64,000 bases of DNA from a virus. Its lineage: Duplodnaviria > Caudoviricetes. Both the position numbers and the translations under genes were made by a program. The stretch lies in IMG/VR virus record IMGVR_UViG_3300027805_000006. The stretch is one strand, 5' to 3'. The notes beneath the pieces were generated by a model, which ran no database searches, had not been told where the DNA came from, and worked only from the letters and a program-made list of their open reading frames with translations. Below are positions 19,542 to 63,957 of the stretch, piece by piece (the first letter of the stretch is position 1; each line of letters opens with the position of its first letter).

Positions 19542-19555
19542 TTAGGAGATTTTAA

Positions 19556-25658: not shown

Positions 25659-25659
25659 A

Positions 25660-25863: not shown

Positions 25864-25884
25864 ATTCAGTCCTCCAGAATGTTA

Positions 25885-27843
25885 CTAGGCCGCCTTCCTA
25901 TTGTTAGTAAACCAAGCAACTAGAATCTTTGTCTGATTTTCAGTATACCCCTTTTCAAGCATTCGCTCAACGAAACCGCGGTGTTTTTCTTCTGTGTCCT
26001 TGTCCTGCTTAGGTCCAAATGCAATGACTGGCATAATCTGCTCAGTGGCGCTAAACATGCGCTTTTCAATTACGGTCTTGATTTTTTCGTATTGGTCCCA
26101 AGATGGTGACTTGCCTTCGTTCTTTGCCTTGTAGCGCAGAACGTAATGAACGATTTCATTGCGGAAGTCCTTGGCATTTACAATACCAGCCGCCTTTTCA
26201 ATCTCTTCCAACTTCTTATTGAGATTTTCACGGTCAAGTAAAGTATGGGTCTCAGGGTCACGACATTGTTCGTCAGCCAACCAAGCCTCGGCGAACAAAA
26301 CATAGCGTTCAAACATATTCTGACCAAATGAGCGATAACTTTCAAGGTAGGCTGTGCGCAGTTCCTTTTCAAGGAACTCAAAGTAGCGTGGCTGGAGGTG
26401 TGACTTGATGAAGTCAAGGTACTCATCAGTCGTTTCCTTTGGAAGATTTTCCTTCTTCACGCTCTCCTCAAGCACGTACATTAGATCAATAGGGTTTGCC
26501 TGCTGTTCCTCTGGGCGTAGGTCATAGGTTGCAGAAAGAACCTTGAAGGCGAAGCGGGTAGACATTCCCTTCATTCCCTCGTCATTCCCAGCGGCATCGC
26601 GATACTCTTCGTATGGCTTTGCATTGGGCATGGTGTCCTTTACGTTATCACCGTTATAAACGCGAAGTTTGGCGTAGATGGTACTGTTTTCTGGCTTCTT
26701 TAGGCGGGTAAGAATGCTCCACTGTGCCAGCATCTTAAGTGTTCCAGGTGCACATGGTGCAGTTGCGAGAGAACTTACCTTAAGCATCTTTTCGTAGATA
26801 AGAATTTCTTCAATAGTTCGCAAGCAGTATGGTACATCGACAATGTAAACCCGGTCAAGGAATGCTTCGTTAGTTTTGTTGTTGCGGAAATTGAACCACT
26901 CGCTTTCATTTGAGTGAGCCATAATAATTCCGGTATAAGGCATAGAAGGAATGGCTTCAGTGCCGTTATAGTTGTGTTCCTGTGTAGCCATTAGCAATGG
27001 GTTGAGCGTCTTGATATTTGCCTTAAACATTTCAGCAAAATCCATCAAACCCTGATTAGTGCGGTTGAGACCACCACTGTATGAATACGCGTATGGGTGA
27101 TTCTGAGGAAATTTTTCCAATTTACGAATATCAATCTTTCCAACTAGAACTGAAACGTCCTGGTTGTTTTCATCGCCTGGCTCAACCTTCATCACGCCGA
27201 TTTGGCTGTCCTTATTTGGATAAACCTTAATTACCTTAAAGCGGGTAATATCACCGTCAAATTCCTTCAATTTTTCCTGAGCCCACCCACTCATTACCGT
27301 ATTAAGGTAGCGCTGTGGAATTCCATATTCCTTCTCAAGCATTTCTCCGTGCTCAAACTGGTTGAATAGCCCTAGAGGGCTATCAAGAACAGGAGACATC
27401 CGCTTTTCTACATCATTTTCTTGTGCATCATAAAGAACATAGATTGGAAACTTCTGCATCAAAGCCTTTAGGCGCTCTGCAAGAGATGACTTACCACCAC
27501 CTACTGGTCCCTTTAGATACAGAATTTGCTTGCTCTCTTCTAGTCCTGCTGCACTATTTCGGAAGTATGCTGCAATTCGCTCAATTGCATCTTCTGCTCC
27601 GTAAAAATCAGCAAATGAACGATATAGACGAATTTTCTTGTTTGAGTGAATTCTTGAAAGACGAGCGTCTTCACTCGTATCAATAATTTCAGGCTGGCCG
27701 ATTGCAGCAACCATTCTCTCTGCTGCAGTTGCATAGGTCATTTTATCCTGCTTACACCTGTCTAGAAACTGTTCCAGCGAAATAATTTCTGGCTGGGCAA
27801 ATTTACTAGCAAATGAGGCGGAAAGAGATGAGAGAGCAGTCAT
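25885..27843 (-). CDS. prkA: PrkA/YeaG family serine kinase / AAA+ ATPase
   Basis: ILYLKGPVGGGKSS Walker A, EPGDENNQDVS.LVGK.DIRKLE, YSGGLNR.NQGLM.F.EMFKA, LAHSNESEW-like segment. Confidence 0.95.
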   Translation of the reverse strand: MTALSSLSASFASKFAQPEIISLEQFLDRCKQDKMTYATAAERMVAAIGQPEIIDTSEDARLSRIHSNKKIRLYRSFADFYGAEDAIERIAAYFRNSAAGLEESKQILYLKGPVGGGKSSLAERLKALMQKFPIYVLYDAQENDVEKRMSPVLDSPLGLFNQFEHGEMLEKEYGIPQRYLNTVMSGWAQEKLKEFDGDITRFKVIKVYPNKDSQIGVMKVEPGDENNQDVSVLVGKIDIRKLEKFPQNHPYAYSYSGGLNRTNQGLMDFAEMFKANIKTLNPLLMATQEHNYNGTEAIPSMPYTGIIMAHSNESEWFNFRNNKTNEAFLDRVYIVDVPYCLRTIEEILIYEKMLKVSSLATAPCAPGTLKMLAQWSILTRLKKPENSTIYAKLRVYNGDNVKDTMPNAKPYEEYRDAAGNDEGMKGMSTRFAFKVLSATYDLRPEEQQANPIDLMYVLEESVKKENLPKETTDEYLDFIKSHLQPRYFEFLEKELRTAYLESYRSFGQNMFERYVLFAEAWLADEQCRDPETHTLLDRENLNKKLEEIEKAAGIVNAKDFRNEIVHYVLRYKAKNEGKSPSWDQYEKIKTVIEKRMFSATEQIMPVIAFGPKQDKDTEEKHRGFVERMLEKGYTENQTKILVAWFTNNRKAA

Positions 27844-29054: not shown

Positions 29055-29594
29055 TTATTTGGTGATCTTCCTAAGGGTGATGTATGTTGTCTCTACATCA
29101 CCATCCCATTGCGTAGAATGGGTTTCTACGTCCCAAAGAATTTCTTGCTTTCTTTGAGAGATTATAAATCTTTTCCACTCGTAGATATTTGTCTTGATTT
29201 TAACCTCAGCCTCACTTGATGAGGCTATAAGTGTCATATGAATTTCATCTACTAGATTTTTTTCTAGTGCTTCATCATAGACAGATGCTCCGCCCGCCAC
29301 CCAAATATGTTTCTGCTTTTTCCCAACATATTTTTCAAGAACGTCAATTGAGGAAACATACTTGACGCTTTTATGCAAAACCGGAGTTTTTGATAAGACG
29401 ATATTCTTGCGATTTGGAAGACCATTTGGTCGCTTAAGGCTCCTAAATGTAGTATTTCCCATAAGAACCGTGTCACCTATGGTGAGAGCCCTAAATCTCA
29501 TTAGATCATTTTTCAGGTTTGGATATGCTAACCTACCATCAGACCAACCAATGGTACCTACACCATCTACTGCTAGAATGAGTTTTACGGCCAT
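29055..29594 (-). CDS. folA: Dihydrofolate reductase
   Basis: LILAVD...IG...D..RFRALT.G..VLMG.TTF.SL...LPNRKNIVLS...WVAGGASVY. Confidence 0.9.
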   Translation of the reverse strand: MAVKLILAVDGVGTIGWSDGRLAYPNLKNDLMRFRALTIGDTVLMGNTTFRSLKRPNGLPNRKNIVLSKTPVLHKSVKYVSSIDVLEKYVGKKQKHIWVAGGASVYDEALEKNLVDEIHMTLIASSSEAEVKIKTNIYEWKRFIISQRKQEILWDVETHSTQWDGDVETTYITLRKITK

Positions 29595-31210
29595 TAGAAC
29601 TTCTTGCCAAACTGGGAGATAATCTGTGGCGCAGCGCTGTCAAATCCAGCAATGTCCAACTGTAGAGGATCATTTGGGTCAGAGACCGAAACATCTGTCA
29701 CAGACGTGGCAATAATAACTTGACGTGTCTTGGGTGTGTCCATCTTGCGGCGATACTGCTTGAGCGCATCTGTTGCGTGGATTTGACCTGCCCACGTTTC
29801 ATTGTCGGTGATGCTCACGAAGGTATCCACCTTCATGCGATTTTCAAGCGCGTGGGTTGCTGGTAGAGAAAGATCGGTGCCGCCCCAGTTAAACTTCTGC
29901 ATCTTCTTCAACACGGCATCTAGGCGCATGTTGGGGCTAATGTGCAATTCTGACATTTTGGTGTTGAAGCCACCAATCCAGTAGTTAGAATGATTTTTTA
30001 CCACAGCAAGAGCCATCACAGCCGCTACTTCAGCCGCTGAAAGATTAGGAGAGCCATTTACTTTTACGCCAAACATTGAGGCAGAGCAATCAACGCCTAG
30101 GAGATAGGCTTCATCGCTCTTCTCACCCTGCTCAAAGGCCGCATAAAATGCATCGTCGAGCGCATCAACAATTCGCTGATTTGGCTTCCACTTTGCCTTG
30201 CTCTTTTCACCTTGACCGGCTGAATACTGCCTAATCGCTTGAAGGAGCGTCAGTGGATGCACGCGCTGGTCACGAAGCGCATGTGTATTTGACAGTTTGC
30301 TGATTATCAAGTTGGAGCCTTCAGACAGTGGCGTCAGCACCCCATGAGAGGTCAGAATACCCAACTTGCGAATTACGGCAGTGAGACCCATATTGACAAG
30401 TAGCGCTGAGAGCACGTCCTTATCTGTCATCCACTTAGTGGGCACCATTTCCCAAGTAATATCCTTGTTGTCTGAAATGATGCGAAGCACTTCCTCACGC
30501 GAAGAGGAGGTCTTCAGTGTCTCAAAGTCCTGAACGAGTTTTGGCAGCGCTTCGAGATTTGACTTCTTTCCAACTGCATATCCAAGTAAAGCCTCCTGCT
30601 CGGGAGATGTTGGCTTGGTATGTGAAAGACGTAGCACGTCTCGGTGTGCCCACCCGTTTCGTGACTTGTACTTTAGCAGTTGAACAGCAAGGCGTTGAAT
30701 GTCCTTGTCGTTATACCACTTAGCAATGCCCCTCTTTGCTGCAGCATTCCACTTGCCAAGAGCGTCAAGAATGGAGACAAACAGGAATAGCCAAGTGCCG
30801 GTGCGTGCAACCTTTGGGAGGGCATCATAGGCGGCTTCAATTGTCGCCGCGTTTCCATAAACCGCGGCTAGCGCGATGGCAACAACTGAGGTGTCGTTCT
30901 TGGGAGACCTGCCAGTAAGAGAATACTCCAGCGCATGGCGCACTACTCGCACACCATCTTCGGCAATGCACGCCTTGATGGTATCAAAGCCCTGCTTAGT
31001 AATATCCTGCTGCGATGCATAGTAGGATGATTGCTCGCTGCCAATCAGGAGGAAGCGGTCAAGGACGCTCCACTTATCCAACTTGAAGGCAAAACCCCCA
31101 GCGTTGTTAAGTTTCATTTCACTCTCGCGGCCAGGGATGGGCTCAGCCTGCGTGGGGAGAGTGCTTGAAGGAGATGATGAGCGGGCGTATTGCGAGTAGA
31201 TGCTTGACAT
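29594..31210 (-). CDS. rsr: Ro60 / TROVE-domain RNA-binding protein (Rsr)
   Basis: NNAGGFAF...LDRFLLIGSE..SYY, SRNGWAHRDVLRLSH, MGLTAVIRKLG, vWA DCSASM, NWGGTD, TDNETW, AGFDSAAP. Confidence 0.95.
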   Translation of the reverse strand: MSSIYSQYARSSSPSSTLPTQAEPIPGRESEMKLNNAGGFAFKLDKWSVLDRFLLIGSEQSSYYASQQDITKQGFDTIKACIAEDGVRVVRHALEYSLTGRSPKNDTSVVAIALAAVYGNAATIEAAYDALPKVARTGTWLFLFVSILDALGKWNAAAKRGIAKWYNDKDIQRLAVQLLKYKSRNGWAHRDVLRLSHTKPTSPEQEALLGYAVGKKSNLEALPKLVQDFETLKTSSSREEVLRIISDNKDITWEMVPTKWMTDKDVLSALLVNMGLTAVIRKLGILTSHGVLTPLSEGSNLIISKLSNTHALRDQRVHPLTLLQAIRQYSAGQGEKSKAKWKPNQRIVDALDDAFYAAFEQGEKSDEAYLLGVDCSASMFGVKVNGSPNLSAAEVAAVMALAVVKNHSNYWIGGFNTKMSELHISPNMRLDAVLKKMQKFNWGGTDLSLPATHALENRMKVDTFVSITDNETWAGQIHATDALKQYRRKMDTPKTRQVIIATSVTDVSVSDPNDPLQLDIAGFDSAAPQIISQFGKKF

Positions 31211-46963: not shown

Positions 46964-47008
46964 TTTAAAGTATTATTTAAAGTATTATTTAAAGTATTAT
47001 TTAAAGTA
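46964..47008. repeat. 12-bp tandem repeat TTTAAAGTATTA x3.75, intergenic
   Basis: Units start at 46964, 46976, 46988 and 47000. Confidence 0.9.
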
Positions 47009-47010: not shown

Positions 47011-47829
47011 TCACTTATTTTCATCTAAAACACAAAGATGATTTAGTATATTTATTACTTTGCTATCATTTGCAATGGTATAGCGAGGCTTAAATGTACC
47101 CAGTTGAACTGAAATATGAACAGAAGTTAGTTGATGATCCTCTACTTCTCGGTTTAAAGGATTAATTTTAGATAGTTCAATTGCTACCTTGCGGTATCGT
47201 GAAACGTTTGATGGGCAAAGATAGTTGGCATTGGTATCTACGATTGCGGCTGCAAACTTGCGTGCCAACTGCTTATCAAGTGAAACAATCAGGTGTGAAA
47301 CAATAACACTTGGGGAACTTGACTTGCCAACCTCTGGAGAAACAATTAGACGTATGTTAAGACACATTGTTGTAAGTGCCATACCTGTCACCGGTGTTGA
47401 AATTTTCCAAGATACGCTAAGGTCACGAGAATTTGTTTTCCCGTCCGGGAGTGGGAAAACCGATTGAATTAGTTGCTCAGCAACATTTCCCTTTTCAATA
47501 TGCTTATGTAGAATAATTACTTCTCTGCCTGCGTCAATTAGTTGTTCAAGTTCAGTTGCAACTTCCTTCAAAAACCACTTTGTTCGGGTTTCAAGAGGAA
47601 TAAGTCTATTCTTTTCTAACCGCCCTCCGCCGCGCGGTACTATTTCTCCGCCGTGCCAGATTGCTTTCTTGTTGTTTGGATATGGTTGCATCTGAAAGAA
47701 ATTATCAATGATGACACTTGCCTTAAAGGTCAAGTCATACTTCTTAGCTGCGAGAGTCTTAAAGTACTGAAGAAAGCGATTGCCCTCAAGAAGAGGTGCT
47801 TCTTTGTCAGTGAGTGTTTTTGCTAGCAT
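47011..47829 (-). CDS. Hypothetical protein
   Basis: 272-aa ORF with AGGGTGA SD-like sequence; no recognised motif. Confidence 0.7.
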   Translation of the reverse strand: MLAKTLTDKEAPLLEGNRFLQYFKTLAAKKYDLTFKASVIIDNFFQMQPYPNNKKAIWHGGEIVPRGGGRLEKNRLIPLETRTKWFLKEVATELEQLIDAGREVIILHKHIEKGNVAEQLIQSVFPLPDGKTNSRDLSVSWKISTPVTGMALTTMCLNIRLIVSPEVGKSSSPSVIVSHLIVSLDKQLARKFAAAIVDTNANYLCPSNVSRYRKVAIELSKINPLNREVEDHQLTSVHISVQLGTFKPRYTIANDSKVINILNHLCVLDENK

Positions 47830-47886: not shown

Positions 47887-49401
47887 TTAACCTCCAACCA
47901 CCACCAGTTCGGTAACCTTTCGATCACCCGTCTTGATGGTGCCGTGATCAACAACATTACCAGTATCAAAGTTCAACTCAATGATCTTGGTATCGCTGTT
48001 CGCAGTAGAGACTGCTCCCCAAAGCATTGCCTTGTCCTTGAACATTTCAAACTTGCGGCCAGCACTAAAGAAGTATCCAATGCTGTCAGTATTGAAGTGC
48101 TTCATGGTGTTGGTAGCAACGTTCAGGCGGGAGAAGATGTTGCCAGAACCATTTACACAGAAGGCGTTTTCTCCTTCGAGGCGGGCGTATGTAGCACCTT
48201 CAGCAACTGCAACTGAAGCACTGGCACTTTCGCCGGGTCGGGTAAGAAGATTGTAGGCACCAGTGGTGGTGTTCCAAACCAGGCAACGATCAGACATTAC
48301 CCACTCCCCAAACCGGCCACGAACACCGTAGGAACCAGGAACGCGAAGTTGCGCAGGTGTCCATTCAGTGTAGGAGTTGGTGCTGAGGTTAAGTTGGCGC
48401 ATATACTGCGAGTATTCAAGCCATACAAAATTGCCTGCGGCATCAAGCATAACACCAGAACCGGGGTACTTTGAAGCAGGAATTTCAGGGCTACCCATCG
48501 CGGTGCTGATGATCTTGAATGCCTTCGAGTTTGCGTCGAGTGCCAGCACTACATCTGAACGCTGGGTAGAGGTAGCAACCAACCAATTTCCATTGTAGGC
48601 GAGGAAGCCAACGCCTGTCTTGATTGGGAGGCTTTCCTCAGTTAGCGTCTTGAGAGTAACCTTGCCATCATCAGCCACGGCAAGCGTGCGTACATGGCCA
48701 GACTTGAAGACTAGAACTGCAGTATCAGAACTGTTGAATGCTTGATCGCCTGCTTCAAGCACGTGGGAAATCTGATCCCCATCCACTTGGACTTCTACAG
48801 TTGCGCCGGATGAAGTAATGACATACATAGCATCCTTGTACGTAACCGTGCAGTTAGCATTAATGACAGAAGGAACCGTCAACTTGCCCAGCATGTGGCC
48901 CTTACCAGGATGCACGTCCCACAGACGGTGAATTCGTGCTTCAGCAGTTGAAGTATCACAGTGGGTAATCAAAGCGCCATTTGCATCACGAAGGTCAAGA
49001 TTTAGCGTAACCAACTTGCCGCCTTGAATCTTGTTGGTAAAACCAAAGTTCGAGCCAGGATTGACCTTTACTGAGGTGTTGGCATATGCCGTACCTGCAA
49101 AAGTGCTGGTGGCATCAAACATAAAGCGCTTCAGGAAACTATCCAGGAAGCCGACAACAGTGGATGAAGTAGCAGTCTGGGCAAGAACGTCATTCGTCTT
49201 GATGTCCATACCAACCAGACTGACATTGACTGCAGTAGGAGAAGGGGCGGCGGCGGTAGCAGGAGGAGTGCTAGTGCCACCTGAAGTGCCACCTGAAGAA
49301 GTTGCGGGTGCAGGGGCAGATCCACCACCACCGCCACAGGCAGAAAGGATGGCAACTGACATTGCAGCCAGAGCAAAACGAGCGGTGCGAGAAGTCTTCA
49401 T
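47887..49401 (-). CDS. Large lipoprotein (504 aa), probably outer-membrane anchored and beta-rich
   Basis: Signal MKTSRTARFALAAMSVAILSA|C lipobox, followed by a GGGGGS/PT-rich linker. Confidence 0.85.
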   Translation of the reverse strand: MKTSRTARFALAAMSVAILSACGGGGGSAPAPATSSGGTSGGTSTPPATAAAPSPTAVNVSLVGMDIKTNDVLAQTATSSTVVGFLDSFLKRFMFDATSTFAGTAYANTSVKVNPGSNFGFTNKIQGGKLVTLNLDLRDANGALITHCDTSTAEARIHRLWDVHPGKGHMLGKLTVPSVINANCTVTYKDAMYVITSSGATVEVQVDGDQISHVLEAGDQAFNSSDTAVLVFKSGHVRTLAVADDGKVTLKTLTEESLPIKTGVGFLAYNGNWLVATSTQRSDVVLALDANSKAFKIISTAMGSPEIPASKYPGSGVMLDAAGNFVWLEYSQYMRQLNLSTNSYTEWTPAQLRVPGSYGVRGRFGEWVMSDRCLVWNTTTGAYNLLTRPGESASASVAVAEGATYARLEGENAFCVNGSGNIFSRLNVATNTMKHFNTDSIGYFFSAGRKFEMFKDKAMLWGAVSTANSDTKIIELNFDTGNVVDHGTIKTGDRKVTELVVVGG

Positions 49402-53187: not shown

Positions 53188-53634
53188 TTACTTGACTGAA
53201 ATCAGAAGAGGCTTATCCTCTTCACGTTCAACCACCTCAAGCGCAATAGACAAAAGCCCATCTTGCATTTCTGCTGATTTTACCACAACATTGTCTGCTA
53301 CAGTAAAGTTTCGGATGAATGAGCGCTTCGCAATTCCAATTCTTACGAGTTCACGACCATCAGGCTGCGGATAGTCTTCTTGACTACCTTCGGAAGAAAT
53401 TGATAGAACATTATTCTTACGATCATGGGAGATCTTAATGTCTTCCTTTCGATAACCTGCAAGAGCTATTTCGATGGTATATCCATCCTTTTCCTTGAAT
53501 AGGTTAAATGGAGGAAATCCATTTACTTGGTGCGTGGAATGGTTGGTTTCAAGCAGCCTTTCAATATCGCTGAAAAGGCGGTCAAAACCTAGGAAAGAAG
53601 TTTCAAGGGGCTTGTAAAAAGCAACACGGTTCAT
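53188..53634 (-). CDS. Small heat-shock protein Hsp20 (IbpA-like; start revised to MNRVAF)
   Basis: FLGFDRLF, FPPFNL, IEIALAGY, GIAKRSF.R.F, A.M.DGLL.I.L. Confidence 0.92.
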   Translation of the reverse strand: MNRVAFYKPLETSFLGFDRLFSDIERLLETNHSTHQVNGFPPFNLFKEKDGYTIEIALAGYRKEDIKISHDRKNNVLSISSEGSQEDYPQPDGRELVRIGIAKRSFIRNFTVADNVVVKSAEMQDGLLSIALEVVEREEDKPLLISVK

Positions 53635-53717
53635 AGTCATCTCCTTCAATAGAAGCAAGTTGATAAAAAGGGTTCCTAACGGCAACCCACTAAATTGAAG
53701 ACCCGTATGGCATCTTC
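53635..53717 (-). promoter_or_regulatory. ROSE-like RNA thermometer in the hsp20 5' UTR
   Basis: Hairpin I GAAGATGCC-ATAC-GGGTCTTC, hairpin II GGGTTGCC-GTTA-GGAACCC, hairpin III CTTGCTTCTATTGAAGGAG with the UUGCU motif opposite the AGGA SD. Confidence 0.7.
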
Positions 53718-53939: not shown

Positions 53940-54356
53940 TCAATTTCTACGACGAGTCGCACCGCTTTGGATATCCTTTAACGCTTCTTCAGTAATAAGT
54001 TGCGACCCACCTTTATTATATAGCGGCGCCGATATGAACTTACGATCTCGTGCCCGCAATTCGCGCTCAAGCATCTCAGGATTTTCACGATAGGTATGTT
54101 CAGGTCTAATAACAGACTTTGTACCACCGCCCTTGAATGCATCAAATGATTTCTTGATAAATGCACTTGATACCCCTGCCGAAGATGTTGTCTTTTCAGG
54201 CGCCTTCACTACTTTGGTACGATTCTTGCTGCTAAAATTGGTACTCATGGAGTTTATATTATTAAGCCACTGCTGATATTCTTGTGCCTTCTTTTGCCAA
54301 CCTGGCTTGTTCTTTGTTTTAGAGCGTTGATGTGTGTAAATGATAGCCATATTCAC
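53940..54356 (-). CDS. Hypothetical basic phage protein
   Basis: APLYNKGG motif, GAGGTG SD and an upstream promoter. Confidence 0.7.
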   Translation of the reverse strand: MNMAIIYTHQRSKTKNKPGWQKKAQEYQQWLNNINSMSTNFSSKNRTKVVKAPEKTTSSAGVSSAFIKKSFDAFKGGGTKSVIRPEHTYRENPEMLERELRARDRKFISAPLYNKGGSQLITEEALKDIQSGATRRRN

Positions 54357-54500: not shown

Positions 54501-55538
54501 TCATCTAATTATTAGATATGCTATTACAAGAACACACAATACTTCAGCCAGAAAGTAGATAAACTTCTTATTTTTTACGGCAGTATCAAATAATGTATTT
54601 TGCACCGGCTCAGGCTCTTCAGGTGGTGGAGATACGTCATCACTTATCTGTGCGGGAGCAGTGGATGGTGCAGACCATGTTCCAGGCGCAGGTGCTTCTG
54701 TTAGAGTACCTGCGTTAAACCCCCATGGCTTCAAGAATGATTGGTCATATAGTGAAGGATGTCCATCAAGTTGAGGACGCTGTGTAAAACCGTTCGCAGC
54801 CATAAACTTATTCATATATGTTGCAACATCACGATAAGAAGAAAGACCAAGAGATAGGGACTTTAACAGTGAATATGTAGCGGCGCCCTGAAACTGGTTA
54901 TTAATGAATGCATCTGCTGATGTTTGGTGTGACTGGCAACCAGAGATTAGAAGAGCAGAACGATTTACGTCGCGTGATGTCTTAAATTCTCTGACTTGCA
55001 GTTTATTTTCTGTAATTTCAGTTTGGATGTATTCTGGCATTGGAAGAAATCGATTTCCCTGCTTTTGACTAGATTCAACAAGCGGCGCAGTAATTTCACG
55101 CGTTAACTCAAGAGAATCTTCTTGATCTAGTGCATTTCCGGAGTGGCAGCAATCTAGGACAACTGTAACGTTTACTCCATTTGGCACTTTATTAAATACC
55201 TGCTTCATGTAATCGTCTGTCACTACATTATCACGCCAATCTAAGTCAATAGGACAGATAATTTCGTCCAGACCGTCTGGCTCTACTGTTGAGCGCATTT
55301 GGGATCCATGACCAGAGAAGTGGAAAAAAATAACATCTCCCGGAATAGCACCTGTTACGAGCCATTCAAGACCCCTCTTGATTCCAGCAGCAGTTGCATC
55401 CTTTTCTAGGATGACTTTAATTTCATCAAAACCTTCTTTTGATAGAAGATTTTGTACATTATTCACGTCATTTATGCAACCACGCAGATCATTTCCAGTG
55501 CCTGCATAGTTTATTCCAACCAAAAGTGCCTTTTTCAT
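54501..55538 (-). CDS. Metacaspase (Peptidase C14) with C-terminal transmembrane anchor
   Basis: KKALLVGINY...LRGCIND, FHFSGHG (His), LDCCHSG (Cys), SGCQSHQTSAD, PQL. Ends FIYFLAEVLCVLVIAYLIIR. Confidence 0.92.
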   Translation of the reverse strand: MKKALLVGINYAGTGNDLRGCINDVNNVQNLLSKEGFDEIKVILEKDATAAGIKRGLEWLVTGAIPGDVIFFHFSGHGSQMRSTVEPDGLDEIICPIDLDWRDNVVTDDYMKQVFNKVPNGVNVTVVLDCCHSGNALDQEDSLELTREITAPLVESSQKQGNRFLPMPEYIQTEITENKLQVREFKTSRDVNRSALLISGCQSHQTSADAFINNQFQGAATYSLLKSLSLGLSSYRDVATYMNKFMAANGFTQRPQLDGHPSLYDQSFLKPWGFNAGTLTEAPAPGTWSAPSTAPAQISDDVSPPPEEPEPVQNTLFDTAVKNKKFIYFLAEVLCVLVIAYLIIR

Positions 55539-55540
55539 TT

Positions 55541-55596
55541 TCTGTCTCCAGCATATTCAACCTGCTTTATTTACAGGTTGAGTGACCGGAGACAGA
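55541..55596 (-). promoter_or_regulatory. RBS-occluding nested hairpin with late promoter TAAATA in its loop (metacaspase leader)
   Basis: TCTGTCTCC/GGAGACAGA outer stem (9 bp, covers SD GGAG), TCAACCTG/CAGGTTGA inner stem (8 bp), loop TAAATAAAG. Confidence 0.8.
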
Positions 55597-55625
55597 TTAA
55601 ATGTTTGGCACTCTATTGGATTATG

Positions 55626-55820
55626 TTACGTGCCTTCAGCCTCTTTCTGCTTCTTGTTGCCTCGCATAAATGCTCCGTAAGTTGTAAATTTCTGCCACCA
55701 AGCATTCTTCTTTTCATGCTTAGGTGTGGTCTTTGCTGGACCAGCACCTCCGCCTTGACGCATCTTGGACATTTCCTTCCGGCGGGCGATGTTGCGGGCA
55801 TTCTTTGATTGGCGTGACAT
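55626..55820 (-). CDS. Small basic protein
   Basis: MSRQSKNARNIARRK...KKNAWWQKF; AAAGGA SD. Confidence 0.7.
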   Translation of the reverse strand: MSRQSKNARNIARRKEMSKMRQGGGAGPAKTTPKHEKKNAWWQKFTTYGAFMRGNKKQKEAEGT

Positions 55821-55843: not shown

Positions 55844-56956
55844 TTAAACATTAACTTGATTGACTAGAATATGCTTGATTGTGCTCAAGCGATACTTATT
55901 GATTTTCTTTTTTATTTTTTCACCATCATCATTATCAACTAGTTCTCGTGGAACTGATTGAAGCGCAGAATTTATTTGCTTAAGGGTGGTGCTGCTCACA
56001 CACATACTATTACCAGCAAGTTCTTGAATCTTTACCAGCATAATTAATTCACCTAGGTGATAGTTTTTATGCTCAAATGCTCTAGCAGATGAGAGTACAT
56101 TCAGTAGTTTGACAGGAGTAATTTTCTTTGCATCCTTCAGTTTGCAGAAGGCAGAATGAAGATTCTTAGATGCAAATGTGTGCAGACTCTTTGAGTCTTC
56201 TGGACAAATAGACATGGTAAAATAAATTACCTTTGATGATTCCATGTAATATTCACATACTTGATTTACGGCGCTTGCAACATCAACAAGACGAAGAATA
56301 TCACTCTTCTTTTTAATAAGACCAGAGAAAAACTTTGAGTGCGAAAAAACACCAAGATCCTTTAAACACTTGATAAAAATATTGAAATTAGGCTCTTCAA
56401 CAGTTTTTGCAAGTATTAGCCAGAAGCGAACATACTGAAGTTCGTCAAGCATCTTTTGCTTTACCATCTTTTTACACAACTTGAAAGTTTTTGTATGGAT
56501 AGTAAAACCAAATTGGCTAAGTCTAGCATACAGATTCGCCACACGAATTACACGCAGGGCATCTTCTGAAAAAGCACTAGACGTGTGGCGTAGCACTTTG
56601 TCTTCAATGTCTCTCTTACCGCCAAATGGATCAATGACTTCACCTGTAGAGAGGTCTTTAGCCATGCTATTGATAGTTAAATCTCTGCGTCTAAGGTCAT
56701 CAACGAGTGAAATTTTTGAATCAGCATCTACAGTAAATCCAGAATATCCTTTTCCAGATTTTACCTCAGTACGTGCGAGAGCATACTGCTCATATGTTTC
56801 TGGGTGAATAAAAATTGGAAATGAAAGACCTACCTTTTCAAATCCTTGTGCTAGCATTTCTTCTTCTGAAGAACCTACAACTACGTAGTCTCTATCCTTC
56901 GGCTCAATGCCAAGAATTTCGTCTCTTACTGCCCCGCCGACCAAATAAATCTGCAT
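55844..56956 (-). CDS. cca: tRNA nucleotidyltransferase (CCA-adding enzyme, class II, no HD domain)
   Basis: YLVGGAVRD.....PKDRDYVV, ALARTE..SGKGY.GF, DL.RRDLTINSMA, DPFGG..D, FSEDALRVIR. Confidence 0.92.
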   Translation of the reverse strand: MQIYLVGGAVRDEILGIEPKDRDYVVVGSSEEEMLAQGFEKVGLSFPIFIHPETYEQYALARTEVKSGKGYSGFTVDADSKISLVDDLRRRDLTINSMAKDLSTGEVIDPFGGKRDIEDKVLRHTSSAFSEDALRVIRVANLYARLSQFGFTIHTKTFKLCKKMVKQKMLDELQYVRFWLILAKTVEEPNFNIFIKCLKDLGVFSHSKFFSGLIKKKSDILRLVDVASAVNQVCEYYMESSKVIYFTMSICPEDSKSLHTFASKNLHSAFCKLKDAKKITPVKLLNVLSSARAFEHKNYHLGELIMLVKIQELAGNSMCVSSTTLKQINSALQSVPRELVDNDDGEKIKKKINKYRLSTIKHILVNQVNV

Positions 56957-58475: not shown

Positions 58476-59537
58476 ATGGAGACCCATATGTCAAAAAGCA
58501 TCTTTTTGCTCAAAAGAAGAGACGATTACAATCAGGATCCCAGTTATAGCGGATCATATCAGATTGCCACTGGTATGTGGAATTCTGCCAACTTTGTCAG
58601 CGAAATGCTGGTAGAAAATAATCGAGATTCATTTGTGGAGATGGTAATTGACTCTAATGCAATTGATGCATCAGTTACATCATATAACCCAAACTTTGTT
58701 TTTATTGAGGGGCTGTGGGTTACACCAGCAAAGATGCTTGAATTGATTTCAATTCCACGTCACTCTACTCGCACCTGGGTAGTACGAATCCACTCTGAGA
58801 TTCCATTTCTTTCAACAGAAGGAATTGCAATGGAGTGGATTGCAGAATATCTAAGACTTGGGATTGTTGTTGCACCAAATGCTCCTAGGGCTCATCAGCA
58901 GTTGAAGTGGTTTGCGGAAAGACTGGGTCTTTCCTCTTTGCAAGTAGAACAGCAGGTAGTCTACCTACCAAATTCATATCCAACAGATTTTGACCCTATT
59001 TCTGGTCTCAATACCTCTTCAAAGTCACACATCGACGTTGCATGCTTTGGTGCATTTAGACCACTTAAGAATCACCTTCAGCAGGTCTTTATCGCTAGTA
59101 GATTTGCTGATTCCATTGGAAAGCCACTAAGATTCCATGTCAATAATCGACTCGACAGTGGCGGGTCACCTATCTCAAAGAACGTCAAAGAGACAGTTGA
59201 GGAAATGGGTCACATAGTCGTAGAACATCCATGGGAAGATAGAAGTACCTTTCTGCAGAGCCTAAGAGATTGTGACCTTCTACTTCAAGTATCAATGTCA
59301 GAAACGTTTAACATTGTGGCTGCAGATGCTACCTATGTCGGGCGCCCCATACTTGTTTCAAATGAGATTCCTTGGGTACATCCACTATTTGCAGACCCAC
59401 AGAATGTAGATAAGTCTTTGAAGGCACTAGAAGCCATCTGGTCAAACAAGTCATACTATGTGCAAAACAACCGAAGAGGTCTGCAGAAGTACGTAACATC
59501 AAGCAAAGTTGTCTGGACAAACTACATCCCACAGTAA
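58476..59537 (+). CDS. Glycosyltransferase-like protein (GT-B fold, GT4-like)
   Basis: CFGAFRPLKNH...CDLLLQVSMSETFNIVAADA...RPILVS. TAAATA at 58460-65. Confidence 0.7.
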   Translation: METHMSKSIFLLKRRDDYNQDPSYSGSYQIATGMWNSANFVSEMLVENNRDSFVEMVIDSNAIDASVTSYNPNFVFIEGLWVTPAKMLELISIPRHSTRTWVVRIHSEIPFLSTEGIAMEWIAEYLRLGIVVAPNAPRAHQQLKWFAERLGLSSLQVEQQVVYLPNSYPTDFDPISGLNTSSKSHIDVACFGAFRPLKNHLQQVFIASRFADSIGKPLRFHVNNRLDSGGSPISKNVKETVEEMGHIVVEHPWEDRSTFLQSLRDCDLLLQVSMSETFNIVAADATYVGRPILVSNEIPWVHPLFADPQNVDKSLKALEAIWSNKSYYVQNNRRGLQKYVTSSKVVWTNYIPQ

Positions 59538-59541
59538 AAAT

Positions 59542-59564
59542 AAAGGGCTCTTTAAGAGCCCTTT
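59542..59564. terminator. Bidirectional intrinsic terminator AAAGGGCTCT-TTA-AGAGCCCTTT
   Basis: Between convergent genes, with A/T tracts on both sides. Confidence 0.8.
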
Positions 59565-59581
59565 TCGTTATTGTTAAAAGA

Positions 59582-59836
59582 TTAGCGAATAACCTTCAAC
59601 TTTGGATCAAGGTGCGAGAGGGCAAAATTTCCCATTCCAAGCACCAACTGGCGGATGCTGTTGGAGCCCATAATCATTGCCATTGCCTTTCGCACATTTT
59701 CGGGGCGGGCACCTTCAGTTGCATTCACACGGTCAATTGCCATACCCTTGGCAACCATAAGATTGGCGGCCTTTTCAATCTGACCCATAAAAGCAAAATC
59801 AAAGAAACCAGTTCCACGATCAACAGCCATTTTCAC
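59582..59836 (-). CDS. Hypothetical protein
   Basis: AAAGGAG SD; upstream sigma70-like promoter and TAAATA. Confidence 0.7.
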   Translation of the reverse strand: MKMAVDRGTGFFDFAFMGQIEKAANLMVAKGMAIDRVNATEGARPENVRKAMAMIMGSNSIRQLVLGMGNFALSHLDPKLKVIR

Positions 59837-59875
59837 TTCTCCTTTAGCGTGTCTAGTTATTTAGACAACTTTTAT

Positions 59876-59904
59876 ATCTTAACACCATCTAGATTAAATG
59901 TACA
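59876..59904 (-). promoter_or_regulatory. Sigma70-like promoter TGTACA-17-TAAGAT
   Basis: -35 at 59904-899 and -10 at 59881-876. Confidence 0.6.
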
Positions 59905-59949
59905 CCGCCAAATTGTAACAAATTGTATCATTAATGTTACACGGTGTAA

Positions 59950-60024
59950 TACTAAGTAACATTTATGTTACTTTTACTAAGTAACATTTATGTTACTTTT
60001 ACTAAGTAACATTTATGTTACTTT
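59950..60024. repeat. Three exact 25-bp tandem repeats, each holding the palindrome AAGTAACAT-TT-ATGTTACTT
   Basis: Unit TACTAAGTAACATTTATGTTACTTT at 59950, 59975 and 60000. Confidence 0.95.
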
Positions 60025-60776
60025 TTTCTTTGTTTTACTACTTTTGTCACTTTTACTGGCACATAAAAGTTGGTATCTCCCAGCATCTTTCTCAGTTTGA
60101 TTAGGTCATTCCAACGTTCTCTAGTATTCTGAGATCCTAGAATTACTATTGTTACCATATTGTAGTTGACTTCCATCACCGTAACTAGACAGCCACCCGC
60201 CCTTTTAATAAATCCTGTCTTTGAAAGGTAGAACTTCCAGCCCTCTTTGTTTAAGAACGGATTGGTGTTTATTCTTTCGCCTATGGTTGTTTTATCCCGA
60301 ACTGAGATGCTTGCGAGTTCTGTTCGATAAAGTTCTCTTGCGCTTTCAGCAATCTTTCTAGCGGTTGATTGGTTCAATTCATCTAGACCACTTCCTTCAA
60401 CGAGCGTAGCATTTGCAACCGATGAAAGTTCAGTAACACGCCCAAGTGCCTTGGCAGCGGCATTGTCAGAAGAAACTAAAGACAATTCAGTAAGTTCTCT
60501 TCGCGTATAAAACTGACCTGCTTTAAGAGGTGTAAATGTTCTTCCACCATTTCTTATATCTTCTTTAGTGACCTCGATCATTTCATTTTGGTCAAGAGAG
60601 GCGCTCTGCTGCGCAACAAACATCTTGGTGATGCTTGCGATAGGGCGAACATCATCGATATTTTTCTGCAGCAGAATATTTCCCTGCATATCCGTCACAA
60701 TAAACGATGATGCAGAAATTGAAAAAGCAGAACTGGAAAATATTAGGCAGAAGAGCCAGAAGATGGCTTTGAACAC
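60018..60776 (-). CDS. Peptidase S11 D-alanyl-D-alanine endo/carboxypeptidase (PBP7/PbpG-like), secreted
   Basis: Signal peptide, PIASITKM (SxxK), SSDNAA (SxN) and SKTGFI..AG.CL (KTG). Confidence 0.88.
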   Translation of the reverse strand: MFKAIFWLFCLIFSSSAFSISASSFIVTDMQGNILLQKNIDDVRPIASITKMFVAQQSASLDQNEMIEVTKEDIRNGGRTFTPLKAGQFYTRRELTELSLVSSDNAAAKALGRVTELSSVANATLVEGSGLDELNQSTARKIAESARELYRTELASISVRDKTTIGERINTNPFLNKEGWKFYLSKTGFIKRAGGCLVTVMEVNYNMVTIVILGSQNTRERWNDLIKLRKMLGDTNFYVPVKVTKVVKQRKK

Positions 60777-60916
60777 TTTTCTTGTTGTGGTTTAGACTTT
60801 TCAGTAGAAGAAGGTTCCTGCTTCTTTGCAAAAATTCTTTCCCAGCCAGTTCTATATTGGTCTGTGCTCTGTTTTGTTTTTAAAGCATCACCGGTAATGT
60901 CATTTTTTGCAGTCAT
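60743..60916 (-). CDS. Small phage protein (57 aa, MTAKNDITGDALKTKQSTDQYRTGWERIFAKK...)
   Basis: Read by hand; the KNDITGD...Y..GW..IF motif is recalled from large phages. Confidence 0.6.
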   Translation of the reverse strand: MTAKNDITGDALKTKQSTDQYRTGWERIFAKKQEPSSTEKSKPQQEKCSKPSSGSSA

Positions 60917-61673
60917 TCGACTTTACTAGTTTTTCATTGTACTTAAGAAGGGCATTTGTTGCTTCAGGATTTATTCCAACACTTTCTGCCCAAGCACACC
61001 ACGCGTATACATCCTTTGGAATACACTTGCTATTTGCACCTCTTTTATCAGGGTAAACGAATGTCCACCATAAATTCATTCTAGGATCGTCTCCATACAC
61101 TGCGTCGCGTACGGTGTAATAATCAACTCCTGCGGCCTCACACGCGTCATACAGTTCCTGACACTGCATTACTTTGTAGAAAATTGCACGATTTTCACTA
61201 AACTTGATTACTTCTGCTTCAAGTCTAGATACCTGTCTAATTCTAACATTCGCATTATAAACTGTAGCATAGCAATCAATTACTTTACGTCTATCTTCAG
61301 GATCTCCGCCTAAAATCATAAATTGACGGCTGTCCATCTGCAGCATTGGATGTGCAGGGGTTTCTCCCAAATATTCAGGCTGAACAACTATTCTCTTGTT
61401 ATACTTTTTTGCCATCTTGTCTGCAAAGCCAGGTTGAGTTGCAGATCTAATAACAACAAAGTCACAATTACAGTTTGCAATTGCATCTTCTACAGCAGAA
61501 CAATCAAGTTCTGGACCACCAGTCCAGGGCGTAGGAACAGCCAAAAAGCAAATATCACAATTTTCTAGCGGTCTAGAATATTCATCAATAAACTTATCAT
61601 AAATCTGTGCATGTGGAAAAAGCCGTTCTGTTGCTTTACCAATCCATCCATAACCAACAATTCCTACTTTCAT
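60900..61673 (-). CDS. UDP-glucose/GDP-mannose dehydrogenase-family protein (short, lacks C-terminal domain)
   Basis: GIVGYGWIG, FLAVPTP, RSA..PG, PEYLGE, AEVIKFSEN, KCIPKD (catalytic Cys). Confidence 0.85.
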   Translation of the reverse strand: MKVGIVGYGWIGKATERLFPHAQIYDKFIDEYSRPLENCDICFLAVPTPWTGGPELDCSAVEDAIANCNCDFVVIRSATQPGFADKMAKKYNKRIVVQPEYLGETPAHPMLQMDSRQFMILGGDPEDRRKVIDCYATVYNANVRIRQVSRLEAEVIKFSENRAIFYKVMQCQELYDACEAAGVDYYTVRDAVYGDDPRMNLWWTFVYPDKRGANSKCIPKDVYAWCAWAESVGINPEATNALLKYNEKLVKSNDCKK

Positions 61674-61694
61674 AGTGGTAACCTATCTATGTGT

Positions 61695-62999
61695 TTATTT
61701 TTTGGGTGAAAAACCGATTTTTTCTCCAGGAACAAATGGAAAATTATTCTTTTCAAGATATTCATGAAGAACGCTTTTATATTTACTATTCTTAACTGAG
61801 GCTTTCAACCATAAAAATTCCTGTACGAGAGCAGTATCTAAAAATGGATATCGCGTTTCTATTCCATAATGACCCGCAACATATTCCTCTTTGTTTAGAT
61901 ATTGAATTTGCGTTCCATCCCAAAAACTGTGCCAAGGAAAAAAGCCTTCCAAACGCTCTGGAAATAATCCGCCAAATGAACTATGATCATATATTTTTCT
62001 GCCCGCAAAACCATAATCGCTAATAATTTCATCAGCACCTTGTCCAGAAAAATATATTCTCCTCTTTTCATTATTTGCTCTTGTACAAATTGCTGCTAGA
62101 CCAACTGATGCATTGTCCGCTTTTATGTCATAGTCCTTAAACCTATCTTTATACTTAAAGTCTTCACAGTATGACATTAATTCAGAAAGATGAAAATTGT
62201 ATTCTTCCCTACTTATATCAATTAATTCTGTATCCTCTAAAATATGAGTTCTTTGTTCAAGTATATTCATATTTTCTTTATTGATAATAGAATATGCTTT
62301 AAATGGAACTTTTTGTTTATGAAGTTCACAAGATATTGCACCGCTATCATAACCAGAACTTAATCCCAAGAACATAGTGTACGGGGTATTTGCTGTTCTT
62401 TTTCTGATACTTTCTGAAAAAGCAACTAACCAGTCATCACAATTTGACTTGTGCTGATTTAAATCAAAAGAAATATTTTTTATTTCTTGCTTTAACCTAA
62501 GGGTTTTTAAATCATAGATCCTCGTGGTATTAGCGCTTAACTTTTTTGAATTTTCAAATCCAAGTCCAGTTAATTGACTTTGATAAGAAGAAACACCAAA
62601 GTGATCTTGGTCAAAAGCATACCATAATGGTTTACAGGAAAAAGTATCTGTCGCTATCAACACTATATTATTTGTAAAGTCTATTAAACAAAGAGCAAAT
62701 TCACCATCGAGGTGTTTTACGAACGAAATACCCTTATCTTTGTACTGATCAATTATGCAAAATCCATCACTCTTATAATCACCAAATTTTTTATAATTGT
62801 ATATCTCGCCATTAAACACACATACTATATCACCATCAATGAATGGTTGCGGGGTAATTTCTCCGGTAATATGCAGAAGATTGTGCAGAAATTCTACATT
62901 GTTTACAACTTTTACAGAAGTTAAATCTGGCCCCCGCTTTATGCAGAAGCGATTTGTCTTTTCAAGACCGATCTTATTCGTTACTCCAAAACCACACAT
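61695..62999 (-). CDS. Asparagine synthetase B-like glutamine amidotransferase
   Basis: N-terminal MCG (Ntn Cys), FNGEIYNY, LSSGYDS, FSGQGADEI, ETRYPFLD. Confidence 0.88.
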   Translation of the reverse strand: MCGFGVTNKIGLEKTNRFCIKRGPDLTSVKVVNNVEFLHNLLHITGEITPQPFIDGDIVCVFNGEIYNYKKFGDYKSDGFCIIDQYKDKGISFVKHLDGEFALCLIDFTNNIVLIATDTFSCKPLWYAFDQDHFGVSSYQSQLTGLGFENSKKLSANTTRIYDLKTLRLKQEIKNISFDLNQHKSNCDDWLVAFSESIRKRTANTPYTMFLGLSSGYDSGAISCELHKQKVPFKAYSIINKENMNILEQRTHILEDTELIDISREEYNFHLSELMSYCEDFKYKDRFKDYDIKADNASVGLAAICTRANNEKRRIYFSGQGADEIISDYGFAGRKIYDHSSFGGLFPERLEGFFPWHSFWDGTQIQYLNKEEYVAGHYGIETRYPFLDTALVQEFLWLKASVKNSKYKSVLHEYLEKNNFPFVPGEKIGFSPKK

Positions 63000-63006
63000 A
63001 TTTTTC

Positions 63007-63957
63007 CTAATAACAACCTGAATAGATTTTATGTCTACTCAACGTGTTCTCAAGTTCATTAATAACAAAAGGTTTGAAATCATCTGTAGAAAAATCTAAC
63101 ATTTTTCCAGCAATTTTTTGACCTTCACCACTTAAAAAACCGCCTAACGGGAAAAAGGTAAGTTCACCCACAAAAATTCTAGAATGTGTTTGGTACATAT
63201 CAACACGCAAATACTTCCAACCGGCTGAAAGTTTTTCCGCAATATCCTTCATTTCTTCCCACTTGTGTGGAATATTAAATTCATTTGTTCTGCCAAGAAG
63301 TGTATTGAAATGAAAATCCAGATTTTTTCCGTTAATATCTACGTTTATTTCCTTTGATACCGAGTTACCTCTTCCTTCAATATATTGAATCCATTTTATT
63401 TTACCATTCACACAGTGAAATTTAAAATCAGCAGGTGGGATATTTGAAACAGGTCCGATATATTCTTCTGCGAATATCTGTGGTTGAATGTAAGAATACA
63501 TCCATTCTCCATATTTCCAACCATACGCAAGGTTTATTGCCTGTTCAAGTTGACTTTTTATGCTTGATAAATTGAACATACTTCCGTCTTTAATTAAAAA
63601 AACGGTGCCTGAATTATTATTAACTTTTAAAACATAAGACGTTGGTAGGTTACAATTAGCAATTTCACTTGCCCTTTTAAATTTTGCAAAAATTGTTGGG
63701 GTAAAACCTGCACCAATTCTGGTTTCAATATAGTGTCTAACAACAACTTTATCAGATAGACTTACGTGAAGTTTAGACTGATCAAATAATTTTAACCACT
63801 GTATTTTAGAATTAAAATCTTGAGGTTTAACTAAATCGGGAAAGCATTTTAGTTTTGAGAAATAGAAAGTATGAATATTTTCATATATTTCCTGAATTTC
63901 GCCAGTTAATGGTACAATTTTACTATCTTCTTGCCATTTTTCTTTAAGTTTAGTCAT
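63007..63957 (-). CDS. TupA-like ATP-grasp protein (polysaccharide amino-acid ligase family)
   Basis: P.DFNSKIQWLKL, DK..VR.YI, VLK.NNNSG, EEYI...DFKFHC.NGK, LRVDMY...GELTFFP. Confidence 0.85.
   Translation of the reverse strand: MTKLKEKWQEDSKIVPLTGEIQEIYENIHTFYFSKLKCFPDLVKPQDFNSKIQWLKLFDQSKLHVSLSDKVVVRHYIETRIGAGFTPTIFAKFKRASEIANCNLPTSYVLKVNNNSGTVFLIKDGSMFNLSSIKSQLEQAINLAYGWKYGEWMYSYIQPQIFAEEYIGPVSNIPPADFKFHCVNGKIKWIQYIEGRGNSVSKEINVDINGKNLDFHFNTLLGRTNEFNIPHKWEEMKDIAEKLSAGWKYLRVDMYQTHSRIFVGELTFFPLGGFLSGEGQKIAGKMLDFSTDDFKPFVINELENTLSRHKIYSGCY

Follow-up and report, generated by a model that had tools for sequence, protein, structure and literature searches.

A metacaspase with a predicted C-terminal membrane anchor in a virus-specific clade of large phages

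The metacaspase gene and its product

The stretch of DNA analysed here (the window: 64,000 nucleotides (nt) of the IMG/VR virus record IMGVR_UViG_3300027805_000006; Duplodnaviria, Caudoviricetes) carries on its minus strand a gene whose product, P0001, is almost certainly an active-type metacaspase (clan CD, family C14, C14B branch). In the protein, a p20-like catalytic part is followed by a variable loop, a p10-like part, a Pro-rich leash and a C-terminal hydrophobic helix; in the DNA, the ATG start codon and the GGAG Shine-Dalgarno sequence 8 nt upstream of it are reached by an RNA hairpin (Table 1). A preliminary description, made from the letters of this locus, had pointed to an intact His/Cys dyad, a linker rich in Pro and a tail anchor at the C-terminus, and all three stood up to the analysis. 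The motifs FSGHG (residues 73-77, with His77) and DCCHSG (residues 129-134, with Cys131) are in place, both dyad residues are present in each of the 120 closest database relatives of P0001, to which all conservation counts below refer, and the same three-part design with a C-terminal hydrophobic helix is found in 115 of these 120 proteins (46-77% identical, 280-358 amino acids (aa)). There is no second C14 gene in the window.

Table 1. Features of the metacaspase locus (positions are those of the window; ORF, open reading frame; labels beginning with L denote relatives)
Feature	Position	Strand	Details
Hsp20 small heat-shock protein	53188..53685	minus	Pfam HSP20 1.9e-11, phrog_432 4.7e-28
Basic 138-aa protein just downstream of the metacaspase	53940..54356	minus	43-48% identical orthologues downstream in L001, L002, L022; 136-aa gene in L167
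Metacaspase gene, protein P0001	54501..55538	minus	345 aa + stop, ATG start; Pfam C14, PDB sequence and fold matches
Predicted tail anchor (C-terminal hydrophobic helix)	54507..54563	minus	residues 326-344, then Arg345 only
Leash	54564..54728	minus	residues 271-325; short conserved P-x-P-G-T-W patch, disordered Pro/Ala/Glu-rich spacer, Lys-rich juxtamembrane KNKK
p10-like part	54729..54968	minus	residues 191-270; SGCQxxQTSAD motif; aligns to p10 of Yca1, CgMCA-I, AtMC4
Variable inter-subunit loop	54969..55121	minus	residues 140-190; invariant Arg163 (candidate autoprocessing site), clade-specific invariant Asp190
p20-like catalytic part	55122..55538	minus	residues 1-139; His77, Cys131, S1 pocket C21/D24/S75/D129, predicted Ca2+ site G89/D91/D108/D109/D138
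RNA hairpin in the 5' leader	55536..55603	minus	pairs the GGAG Shine-Dalgarno (55546-55549), reaches the AUG
TAAATA, candidate promoter core	55568..55573	minus	located in the loop of the hairpin, 29 nt ahead of the AUG
Very basic 64-aa ORF between CCA enzyme and metacaspase	55626..55820	minus	54% identical in L001; 64-aa gene in the same place in L166, L167
tRNA nucleotidyltransferase (CCA-adding enzyme)	55844..56956	minus	Pfam PolyA_pol 5.1e-21, phrog_2244 1.9e-84; matches in 481 phage records

Pfam Peptidase_C14 matches residues 2-259 of P0001 (E = 6.5e-35), and the best relatives of solved structure retrieved by sequence are Yca1, AtMC4, CgMCA-I, TbMCA2 and AtMC9 (E 1e-35 to 1e-27), with both p20 and p10 aligned; the profile aligns end-to-end to Yca1 and CgMCA-I, and residues 182-262 match the p10 of Yca1. 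The AlphaFold2 (AF2) model of P0001, which has the caspase/haemoglobinase alpha-beta-alpha fold, reaches a mean predicted local distance difference test score (pLDDT) of 79 and exceeds 90 in the core. When this model was compared with the PDB by Foldseek, the top 29 matches were all metacaspases or GSU0716 (E 7e-21 to 1e-13), and metacaspases ranked well above paracaspases and caspases.

The functional residues were mapped through the CgMCA-I alignment and published residue lists (PMC9622860, PMC4357240); those of the S1 pocket were placed by fixed offsets inside the universal motifs, and those of the Ca2+ site via CgMCA-I, not via the TbMCA2 alignment. The acidic S1 pocket of TbMCA2, which gives this enzyme its Arg/Lys specificity, is built of Cys92, Asp95, Ser156 and Asp211 (PMC4357240), and the equivalent residues of P0001 are C21, D24, S75 and D129. 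Like the dyad, D24, S75, D129 and the Ca2+-site residue D108 are invariant, C21 is kept in 119 of the relatives, and Q205, T206 and D209 of the p10-like part are almost invariant (D209 in 119/120). Such conservation of catalytic, S1 and Ca2+-site residues points to an active enzyme under selection, and the best reading is that P0001 should be catalytically competent and cut after Arg or Lys.

As to the class of the enzyme, P0001 lacks the N-terminal prodomain of type I metacaspases (Pro/Gln-rich, often with a zinc finger) as well as a signal peptide: its first residues, MKKALLVGINY, form strand beta-1 (AF2 pLDDT 96), and the GINY motif stands 7-8 residues from the N-terminus in 106 of the relatives. 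The inter-subunit loop comprises about 50 residues, compared with the linker of about 150 residues in type II enzymes, and the presence of p10 and of four acidic Ca2+-site residues sets P0001 against the definition of orthocaspases, which are p10-less and Ca2+-independent (PMC7475262). Having no prodomain, a short p20-p10 loop and a p10, the protein thus falls outside type I, type II and the orthocaspases.

The four-Asp Ca2+ site of TbMCA2 (D173, D189, D190, D220) and CgMCA-I (D198, D214, D215, D245) has its counterpart, as predicted by alignment, in D91, D108, D109 and D138 of P0001. Position 91 is occupied by Asp or Glu in 118/120 relatives, and Asp is found at position 109 in 70/120 and at position 138 in 104/120. 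The last of these positions, seven residues after the catalytic Cys in an ungapped alignment, separates the phage clade from cellular enzymes, since 78 of the 79 closest cellular relatives have Arg or Lys there; Asp at Cys+7 is shared with giant-virus copies and with the Ca2+-dependent yeast and trypanosome metacaspases. In AtMC9, the loss of one of the four Asp was linked to Ca2+ independence (PMC10235996). As all four acidic residues are kept, unlike in the cellular relatives, Ca2+ control is likelier in the phage clade; for P0001 itself we regard it as an even chance.

The inter-subunit loop is hypervariable, rich in Lys and Arg (17.7%) and modelled at pLDDT below 50 at residues 153-162 and 181-190. 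In this otherwise unalignable segment R163 is invariant in all 120 relatives, and the same position is held by Arg or Lys in all 79 closest cellular relatives. An invariant Arg in a hypervariable, disordered, K/R-rich loop is what would be expected of the P1 residue of an autoprocessing site, and the orthocaspase MaOC1 is indeed known to autoprocess after Arg219 (PMC7475262). Equivalence of R163 with the yeast cleavage sites could not be established. Maturation of P0001 by a cut at R163 seems to us neither more nor less probable than its absence.

Residues ~271-317 of P0001 are Pro-rich and acidic. In the AF2 model, the stretch 283-313 is disordered (pLDDT about 46-54 in the leash) and residues 315-344 form a helix at pLDDT 76-94, with a hydrophobic run at 326-344 whose Kyte-Doolittle (KD) 19-mer mean is 2.71. 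This layout is a property of the family: among the 105 members whose tails could be scored, the leash has a median length of 42 aa (29-68) and contains 17% Pro (4% in the domain), the hydrophobic run spans 17-23 residues with only 0-5 residues beyond it, and Lys or Arg occurs within the 8 residues before the helix in 96 members. A hydrophobic segment at the N-terminus is found in no member, the highest N-terminal KD of P0001 being <1. Lys and Arg together make up 1.1% of the leash, as against 7-8% of the domain and 25% of the last 8 residues before the helix, and this roughly sevenfold depletion fits selection against self-cleavage of the tether. Lacking a signal peptide and having a single helix at the extreme C-terminus (326-344 of 345) preceded by the lysines of KNKK, P0001 is most likely tail-anchored by post-translational insertion, and its catalytic domain is quite probably located in the cytoplasm. 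Several close relatives do without the transmembrane run; three of them end in amphipathic helices (hydrophobic moment 0.57-0.74, shuffle p 0.001-0.046) and one in a polybasic tail. Such tails are devices that bind the membrane from its cytoplasmic side and are in line with a destination at the cytoplasmic face.

Phylogeny and comparison with known caspase-like proteases

A profile scan of IMG/VR revealed relatives of P0001 on 138 viral contigs, the close copies being on contigs of 184-388 kb. Viral copies at least 43% identical to P0001 nearly all bear the tail, and the more distant ones, including those from metagenome-assembled genomes (MAGs) of giant viruses, end right after p10. Among 185,579 prokaryotic species, each represented by one genome, at least 564 relatives were found, the best of them only 44% identical to P0001, and the C-terminal hydrophobic helix was found in none of the 79 closest cellular homologues (36-44% identity). 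In a maximum-likelihood tree of 170 rows, all 46 tail-anchored rows fall within one clade of 48 (Shimodaira-Hasegawa-like approximate likelihood ratio test (SH-aLRT) 99), inside which P0001 belongs to a pure tail-anchored subclade of 41 rows (SH-aLRT 99); soluble viral copies are the next neighbours of the clade and cellular ones stand further out. The two soluble rows inside it, L023 and L025, look like secondary losses of the tail. Judging from this tree, the tail anchor was acquired once, in a virus-specific monophyletic clade, and its confinement to one clade with only two soluble members argues that the tether matters. The preliminary description, which had left the relation to cellular metacaspases to phylogeny, overlooked that P0001 belongs to such a large clade, outside which the cellular relatives are placed.

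When grouped at 50% identity, the more than 100 sequence variants of the lineage fall into at least 17 clusters; wherever the genomic context is available, the contig is that of a large or jumbo phage. Relatives occur in freshwater and anaerobic-digester samples. Among the best 150 cluster representatives (50% identity) of an exhaustive search, 19 possessed a C-terminal hydrophobic helix, and about 17 of these belonged to the family of P0001. Megablast of 5 kb around the gene against cultured phages gave no match, and tblastn of P0001 against the phage collection retrieved only one uncultured 485-kb phage, at 37% identity; hence no cultured phage in the searched collection has a close copy.

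Compared with the type I metacaspases Yca1 (PDB 4F6O), CgMCA-I (7QP0) and TbMCA2 (4AF8), P0001 has the same fold, p20 and p10 in the same order and joined by a short linker, both dyad motifs (SGHG and DxCHSG), the S1 pocket, the QTSAD motif and the four acidic Ca2+ positions, including the Asp at Cys+7. However, it is phage-encoded, only ~26-30% identical to them in structure alignment, lacks the prodomain and has gained the leash and the membrane helix. The closest cellular sequences (36-44%) are soluble prokaryotic metacaspases such as Geobacter GSU0716 (PDB 3BIJ) and proteins from MAGs of Acidobacteriota, Desulfobacterota, Dehalococcoidia and Methanothrix. They share with P0001 the ~270-aa p20+p10 core, the dyad, the S1 residues and the basic residue at the R163 position, but differ in the lack of leash and anchor (79/79) and in Arg or Lys at the position of Asp138 (78/79), and stand outside the viral clade.

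A similar layout is known from cyanobacterial orthocaspases with a C-terminal transmembrane helix, which were catalogued in silico only (PMC3501461, PMC7475262). In them the membrane helix likewise follows the caspase domain, which is predicted to face the cytoplasm, and the characterised soluble orthocaspase MaOC1 is Arg-specific and autoprocesses after Arg. Nevertheless, the transmembrane orthocaspases are cellular genes, are described as p10-less and Ca2+-independent and are absent among the closest relatives of P0001, whereas in the phage clade p10 is clearly present and the acidic Ca2+ site is complete. Metacaspases were also noted in the giant viruses Medusavirus, HaV01 and gvSAG-566-O17 (PMC6450098), and 'metacaspase-1' was annotated on metagenomic viral operational taxonomic units (bioRxiv 10.64898/2026.01.21.700432). 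Giant-virus copies are virus-borne too, have an intact dyad and the CHSGxxLD signature, and those from giant-virus MAGs belong to the outgroups nearest to the phage clade; however, they are soluble, end right after p10, are about 30% identical to P0001, and none was described as membrane-tethered. Thus, viral metacaspases and transmembrane orthocaspases were already known in silico, and what is new is a virus-specific, monophyletic, tail-anchored and prodomain-free group with a eukaryote-like Ca2+ site. Searches of the literature on phages and huge phages in connection with caspases or metacaspases yielded no description of a tail-anchored phage metacaspase family, and caspases go unmentioned in a comparative review of jumbo phages (PMC7824862). 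The suggestion in the preliminary description that such a protein had not been characterised therefore holds for the phage protein and has to be narrowed with respect to membrane-bound metacaspases, given the cyanobacterial catalogues.

The same description had mentioned caspase-like proteases of bacterial defence. With these (gasdermin-activating, CHAT/Craspase and EACC1-associated caspases) P0001 indeed shares homology, namely the clan CD fold and the dyad, but the defence enzymes are host-encoded, and no gasdermin, sensor, CRISPR or other defence-type partner was found among the neighbours of the metacaspase gene. The PADLOC caspase model matches only the N-terminal half of P0001 (6.4e-20), and NCBIfam NF047832 (EACC1-type caspase) gives 37.7 bits against a cut-off of 140. 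A defence protease partnered with a gasdermin was rejected on the basis of this sub-threshold family score and the lack of a gasdermin or sensor neighbour.

The leader region and the genomic neighbourhood

The hairpin in the 5' leader has a free energy of -35.3 kcal/mol (z = -9.3), and none of 200 shuffles was as stable. It is kept in the two closest orthologues, L166 and L167 (proteins 73-77% identical), where substitutions leave the base pairing intact (one stem position has U-A, U-G and C-G). A repeated element was rejected, as the core motif of the hairpin occurs once in the window; since no U-run follows, it is not a canonical terminator either, and scans for sigma-70 promoters and terminators gave counts at or below the shuffle expectation.

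The loop of the hairpin contains the hexamer TAAATA, which could represent the core of a (late?) promoter of the phage, a relaxed form of the T4 TATAAATA. In the 70-nt upstream regions the hexamer occurs 10 times, compared with 4.05 in composition-matched shuffles (13/2000 reach 10), and the sense orientation prevails over the antisense one, 10 to 2. It stands 10-34 nt before the starts of the genes at 2096, 11023, 17769 (fibre), 25885, 34808, 36239, 43906, 54501 and 58476. A T4-type late promoter was rejected as stated, the exact TATAAATA being not enriched (2 vs 3.4 expected). The data thus support the hairpin strongly and the promoter weakly, and late, hairpin-gated expression of the metacaspase is a tentative suggestion to which we give somewhat less than an even chance.

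That the window is phage DNA, as the preliminary description had assumed, is confirmed by its fibre genes, the CCA enzyme (phrog_2244) and the phage-type Hsp20; P0001 is, moreover, recorded in the protein database on a contig of 329,993 bp (~330 kb), that is, of a jumbo phage. Contigs of one freshwater metatranscriptome are at least 99% identical across the metacaspase region. They show the phage in the sample and give its habitat as freshwater; their support for expression of the gene is weak, as they could stem from carried-over DNA.

In the subclade of the window (with L001, L022, L166 and L167) the gene order is CCA enzyme, 64-aa ORF, metacaspase, a small ORF and the ~138-aa basic protein, followed by Hsp20, GNAT and HD genes in varying combinations; an HD phosphohydrolase was recognised by Pfam/PHROG in the window as well. 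The larger subclade has a fixed block of a 596-aa protein, ClpX, ribosomal protein S21, unknown proteins of 391, 149 and 120 aa, metacaspase, Hsp20, ClpS and SufBD. In L003-L017, L019, L027, L029 and L167, the metacaspase is followed directly or at a short distance by Hsp20. Pfam and PHROG gave no family for the 64- and 138-aa ORFs and no useful match for a 67-aa ORF or for the 391/149/120-aa trio of the relatives, except for a sub-threshold match to YkuD (L,D-transpeptidase; E = 0.004) in the 120-aa gene directly upstream of the metacaspase. The 64- and 138-aa basic proteins flanking the metacaspase could be its partners, its substrates or nucleic-acid binders. Around the metacaspase genes of the related jumbo phages L003, L005 and their relatives (e.g., L003:4325-10937), genes of Fe-superoxide dismutase, GTP cyclohydrolase I/PTPS and DNA and RNA ligases were also seen.

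Several other regions of the window deserve mention. Six fibre-like genes stand in a row at 2096-21034 (plus strand), two of which are giants (2121 and 1909 aa) that carry distal-tip domains of T4 long tail fibres; three paralogues of this run (323, 590 and 492 aa) share phrog_10745, and the run could be a multi-fibre host-range module. At 22700-27843 (minus strand) a PrkA/YeaG-like kinase (652 aa, phrog_22605 4.5e-198), a YeaH-like protein (454 aa) and a SpoVR-like protein (494 aa) follow each other, making up a trio known from bacterial stress and sporulation, the best matches of which (54-60% identity) are in an Enterobacter phage record, in uncultured phages of 630-640 kb and in Ralstonia phage RsoM2USA (344 kb). 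The 538-aa protein encoded at 29594-31210 (minus strand; phrog_850 'RNA-binding protein', 1.9e-60) may form an RNA repair or quality-control set with the CCA enzyme. Three tandem copies of CTTTAAATA, 12 nt apart, occur at 46974-47006 (minus strand) in the intergenic region upstream of a 272-aa gene at 47011-47829, and a 504-aa ORF at 47887-49401 (minus strand), which has no Pfam or PHROG family, coincides with a local GC peak of 0.49 (about 0.40 around). Finally, a low-GC island (0.32-0.39) at 58476-63957 harbours genes for the envelope and for sugar modification, namely those of a GT4 'conflict-system' glycosyltransferase (a sub-threshold match), a D-Ala-D-Ala carboxypeptidase (Peptidase_S11, 6e-25), a protein similar to UDP-glucose dehydrogenase, an amidotransferase resembling asparagine synthase and an ATP-grasp enzyme resembling TupA.

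Possible action of the enzyme and alternative explanations

We propose that the metacaspase is made by the jumbo phage inside the infected cell and is inserted post-translationally via its C-terminal helix, so that the catalytic domain would remain in the cytoplasm, tethered at a distance of ~40-60 residues from the inner side of the membrane by a flexible Pro-rich leash devoid of the residues after which the enzyme itself cuts. It would mature by a cut, probably at or near the invariant Arg163, its activity would probably respond to Ca2+, and its job would be the cleavage of proteins at or near the inner face of the cytoplasmic membrane. Translation would be gated by the hairpin that hides the ribosome-binding site, possibly limiting synthesis to transcripts that start inside the hairpin. 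Taken as a whole, a protease that is specific for Arg/Lys, responds to Ca2+ and is anchored by its tail at the cytoplasmic side of the membrane seems to us a fairly probable explanation, more to be believed than doubted.

Several points speak against parts of it. R163 may be a structural residue instead of a cleavage site, and in CgMCA-I, whose sites were mapped to K263 and R307, basic residues are not strictly required there (PMC9622860). The Ca2+-site positions 91, 109 and 138 vary somewhat in the clade (to E, N and N), and the mechanism of Ca2+ activation in metacaspases is not understood. The scarcity of Lys and Arg in the leash could simply be the usual composition of Pro-rich acidic linkers. 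The topology is derived from the positive-inside rule and from the lack of a signal peptide, and only 58 of the 105 scored members carry a positive net charge ahead of the helix. Conservation of the hairpin does not extend to more distant relatives, L001 and L003 having different and weaker structures, and the promoter reading is weak, the TAAATA enrichment being modest and the exact T4 late consensus absent. As for the gene neighbours, they give no clue to the substrate.

The recurrent proximity of Hsp20 and Clp genes, with Hsp20 directly or closely downstream in both subclades and ClpX and ClpS in the block of the larger one, motivates an explanation in terms of proteostasis, according to which the metacaspase, together with the phage Hsp20, ClpX and ClpS, would handle misfolded or aggregated proteins during virion production, and the tether would place it where aggregates or nascent membrane proteins collect. 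Yeast Yca1 helps to clear protein aggregates. A proteostasis role of metacaspases is mentioned in the literature (PMC12914765, PMC10399456). Nevertheless, this gene order is common to the related genomes and may be plain synteny, the metacaspase of L001 has no Hsp20 nearby, and nothing links a membrane tether with the handling of aggregates; we therefore hold such a role to be unlikely. Slightly less unlikely in our opinion is that the enzyme stays latent until the membrane is breached, by a holin or by an abortive-infection pore of the host, and is then activated by Ca2+ influx, dismantles host proteins and helps or times lysis. The plant metacaspase AtMC4, activated by Ca2+ entry after membrane damage, is a precedent, and the full acidic Ca2+ site kept in the clade of P0001, unlike in its cellular relatives, the membrane-proximal position, the possible late-type promoter and the hairpin occluding the ribosome-binding site would all suit this purpose. 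However, the ORFs scanned near the metacaspase revealed neither a holin nor an endolysin or spanin, Ca2+ dependence is itself a prediction from sequence, and it is not obvious how a protease in the cytoplasm would contribute to breaking the wall.

An enzyme held at the place where incoming DNA and ejection proteins arrive could also serve exclusion, cutting the proteins injected by competing phages or invading elements in the manner of membrane-located superinfection-exclusion proteins. Caspase-like proteases are common in conflict systems, as the above PADLOC match recalls, yet no sensor or partner gene is conserved beside the metacaspase across the subclades, and the jumbo phages carrying it display no sign of lysogeny in the regions seen, so that we consider exclusion improbable. 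The chances are smaller still, indeed very slight, for a catalytic domain exposed in the periplasm or at the surface and for a virion or prohead protease, the latter being close to the processing of virion proteins considered in the preliminary description. The only observation in favour is the membrane segment itself. The missing signal peptide, the N-terminus that forms the first beta-strand, the terminal position of the helix with lysines on its N-terminal side and the amphipathic helices by which relatives without a transmembrane run would bind membranes from the cytoplasm all oppose a periplasmic location; a role in the virion is opposed by the position of the gene among auxiliary and not head genes and by the tether, which is ill-suited to a prohead protease.

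Returning to a protease on the cytoplasmic face of the membrane, we can also imagine it as a Ca2+-gated sentinel, silent until the membrane is punctured by a host pore (e.g., gasdermin) or a phage holin and then cutting membrane-associated defence effectors or starting the end-game of the infection. We rate this as unlikely, about on a par with the proteostasis role or a shade below it. To our knowledge, the caspase-family proteases that run several bacterial anti-phage systems have so far been on the host side; were the sentinel real, it would be the first phage-encoded caspase-family protease of counter-defence or death timing and a viral mirror of the host caspase-gasdermin systems.

The preservation of an intact metacaspase together with its tether in an old virus-specific lineage points to a conserved, location-dependent proteolytic step in infection, the study of which could reveal a new mechanism of host takeover or counter-defence. 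Irrespective of the physiological role, a metacaspase that is compact, has no prodomain and possesses a eukaryote-like Ca2+ site is material for studying Ca2+ control in this family of enzymes. Even if the role turns out to be housekeeping only, the present analysis would provide a useful annotation of a widespread phage gene that is now labelled 'hypothetical' in databases.

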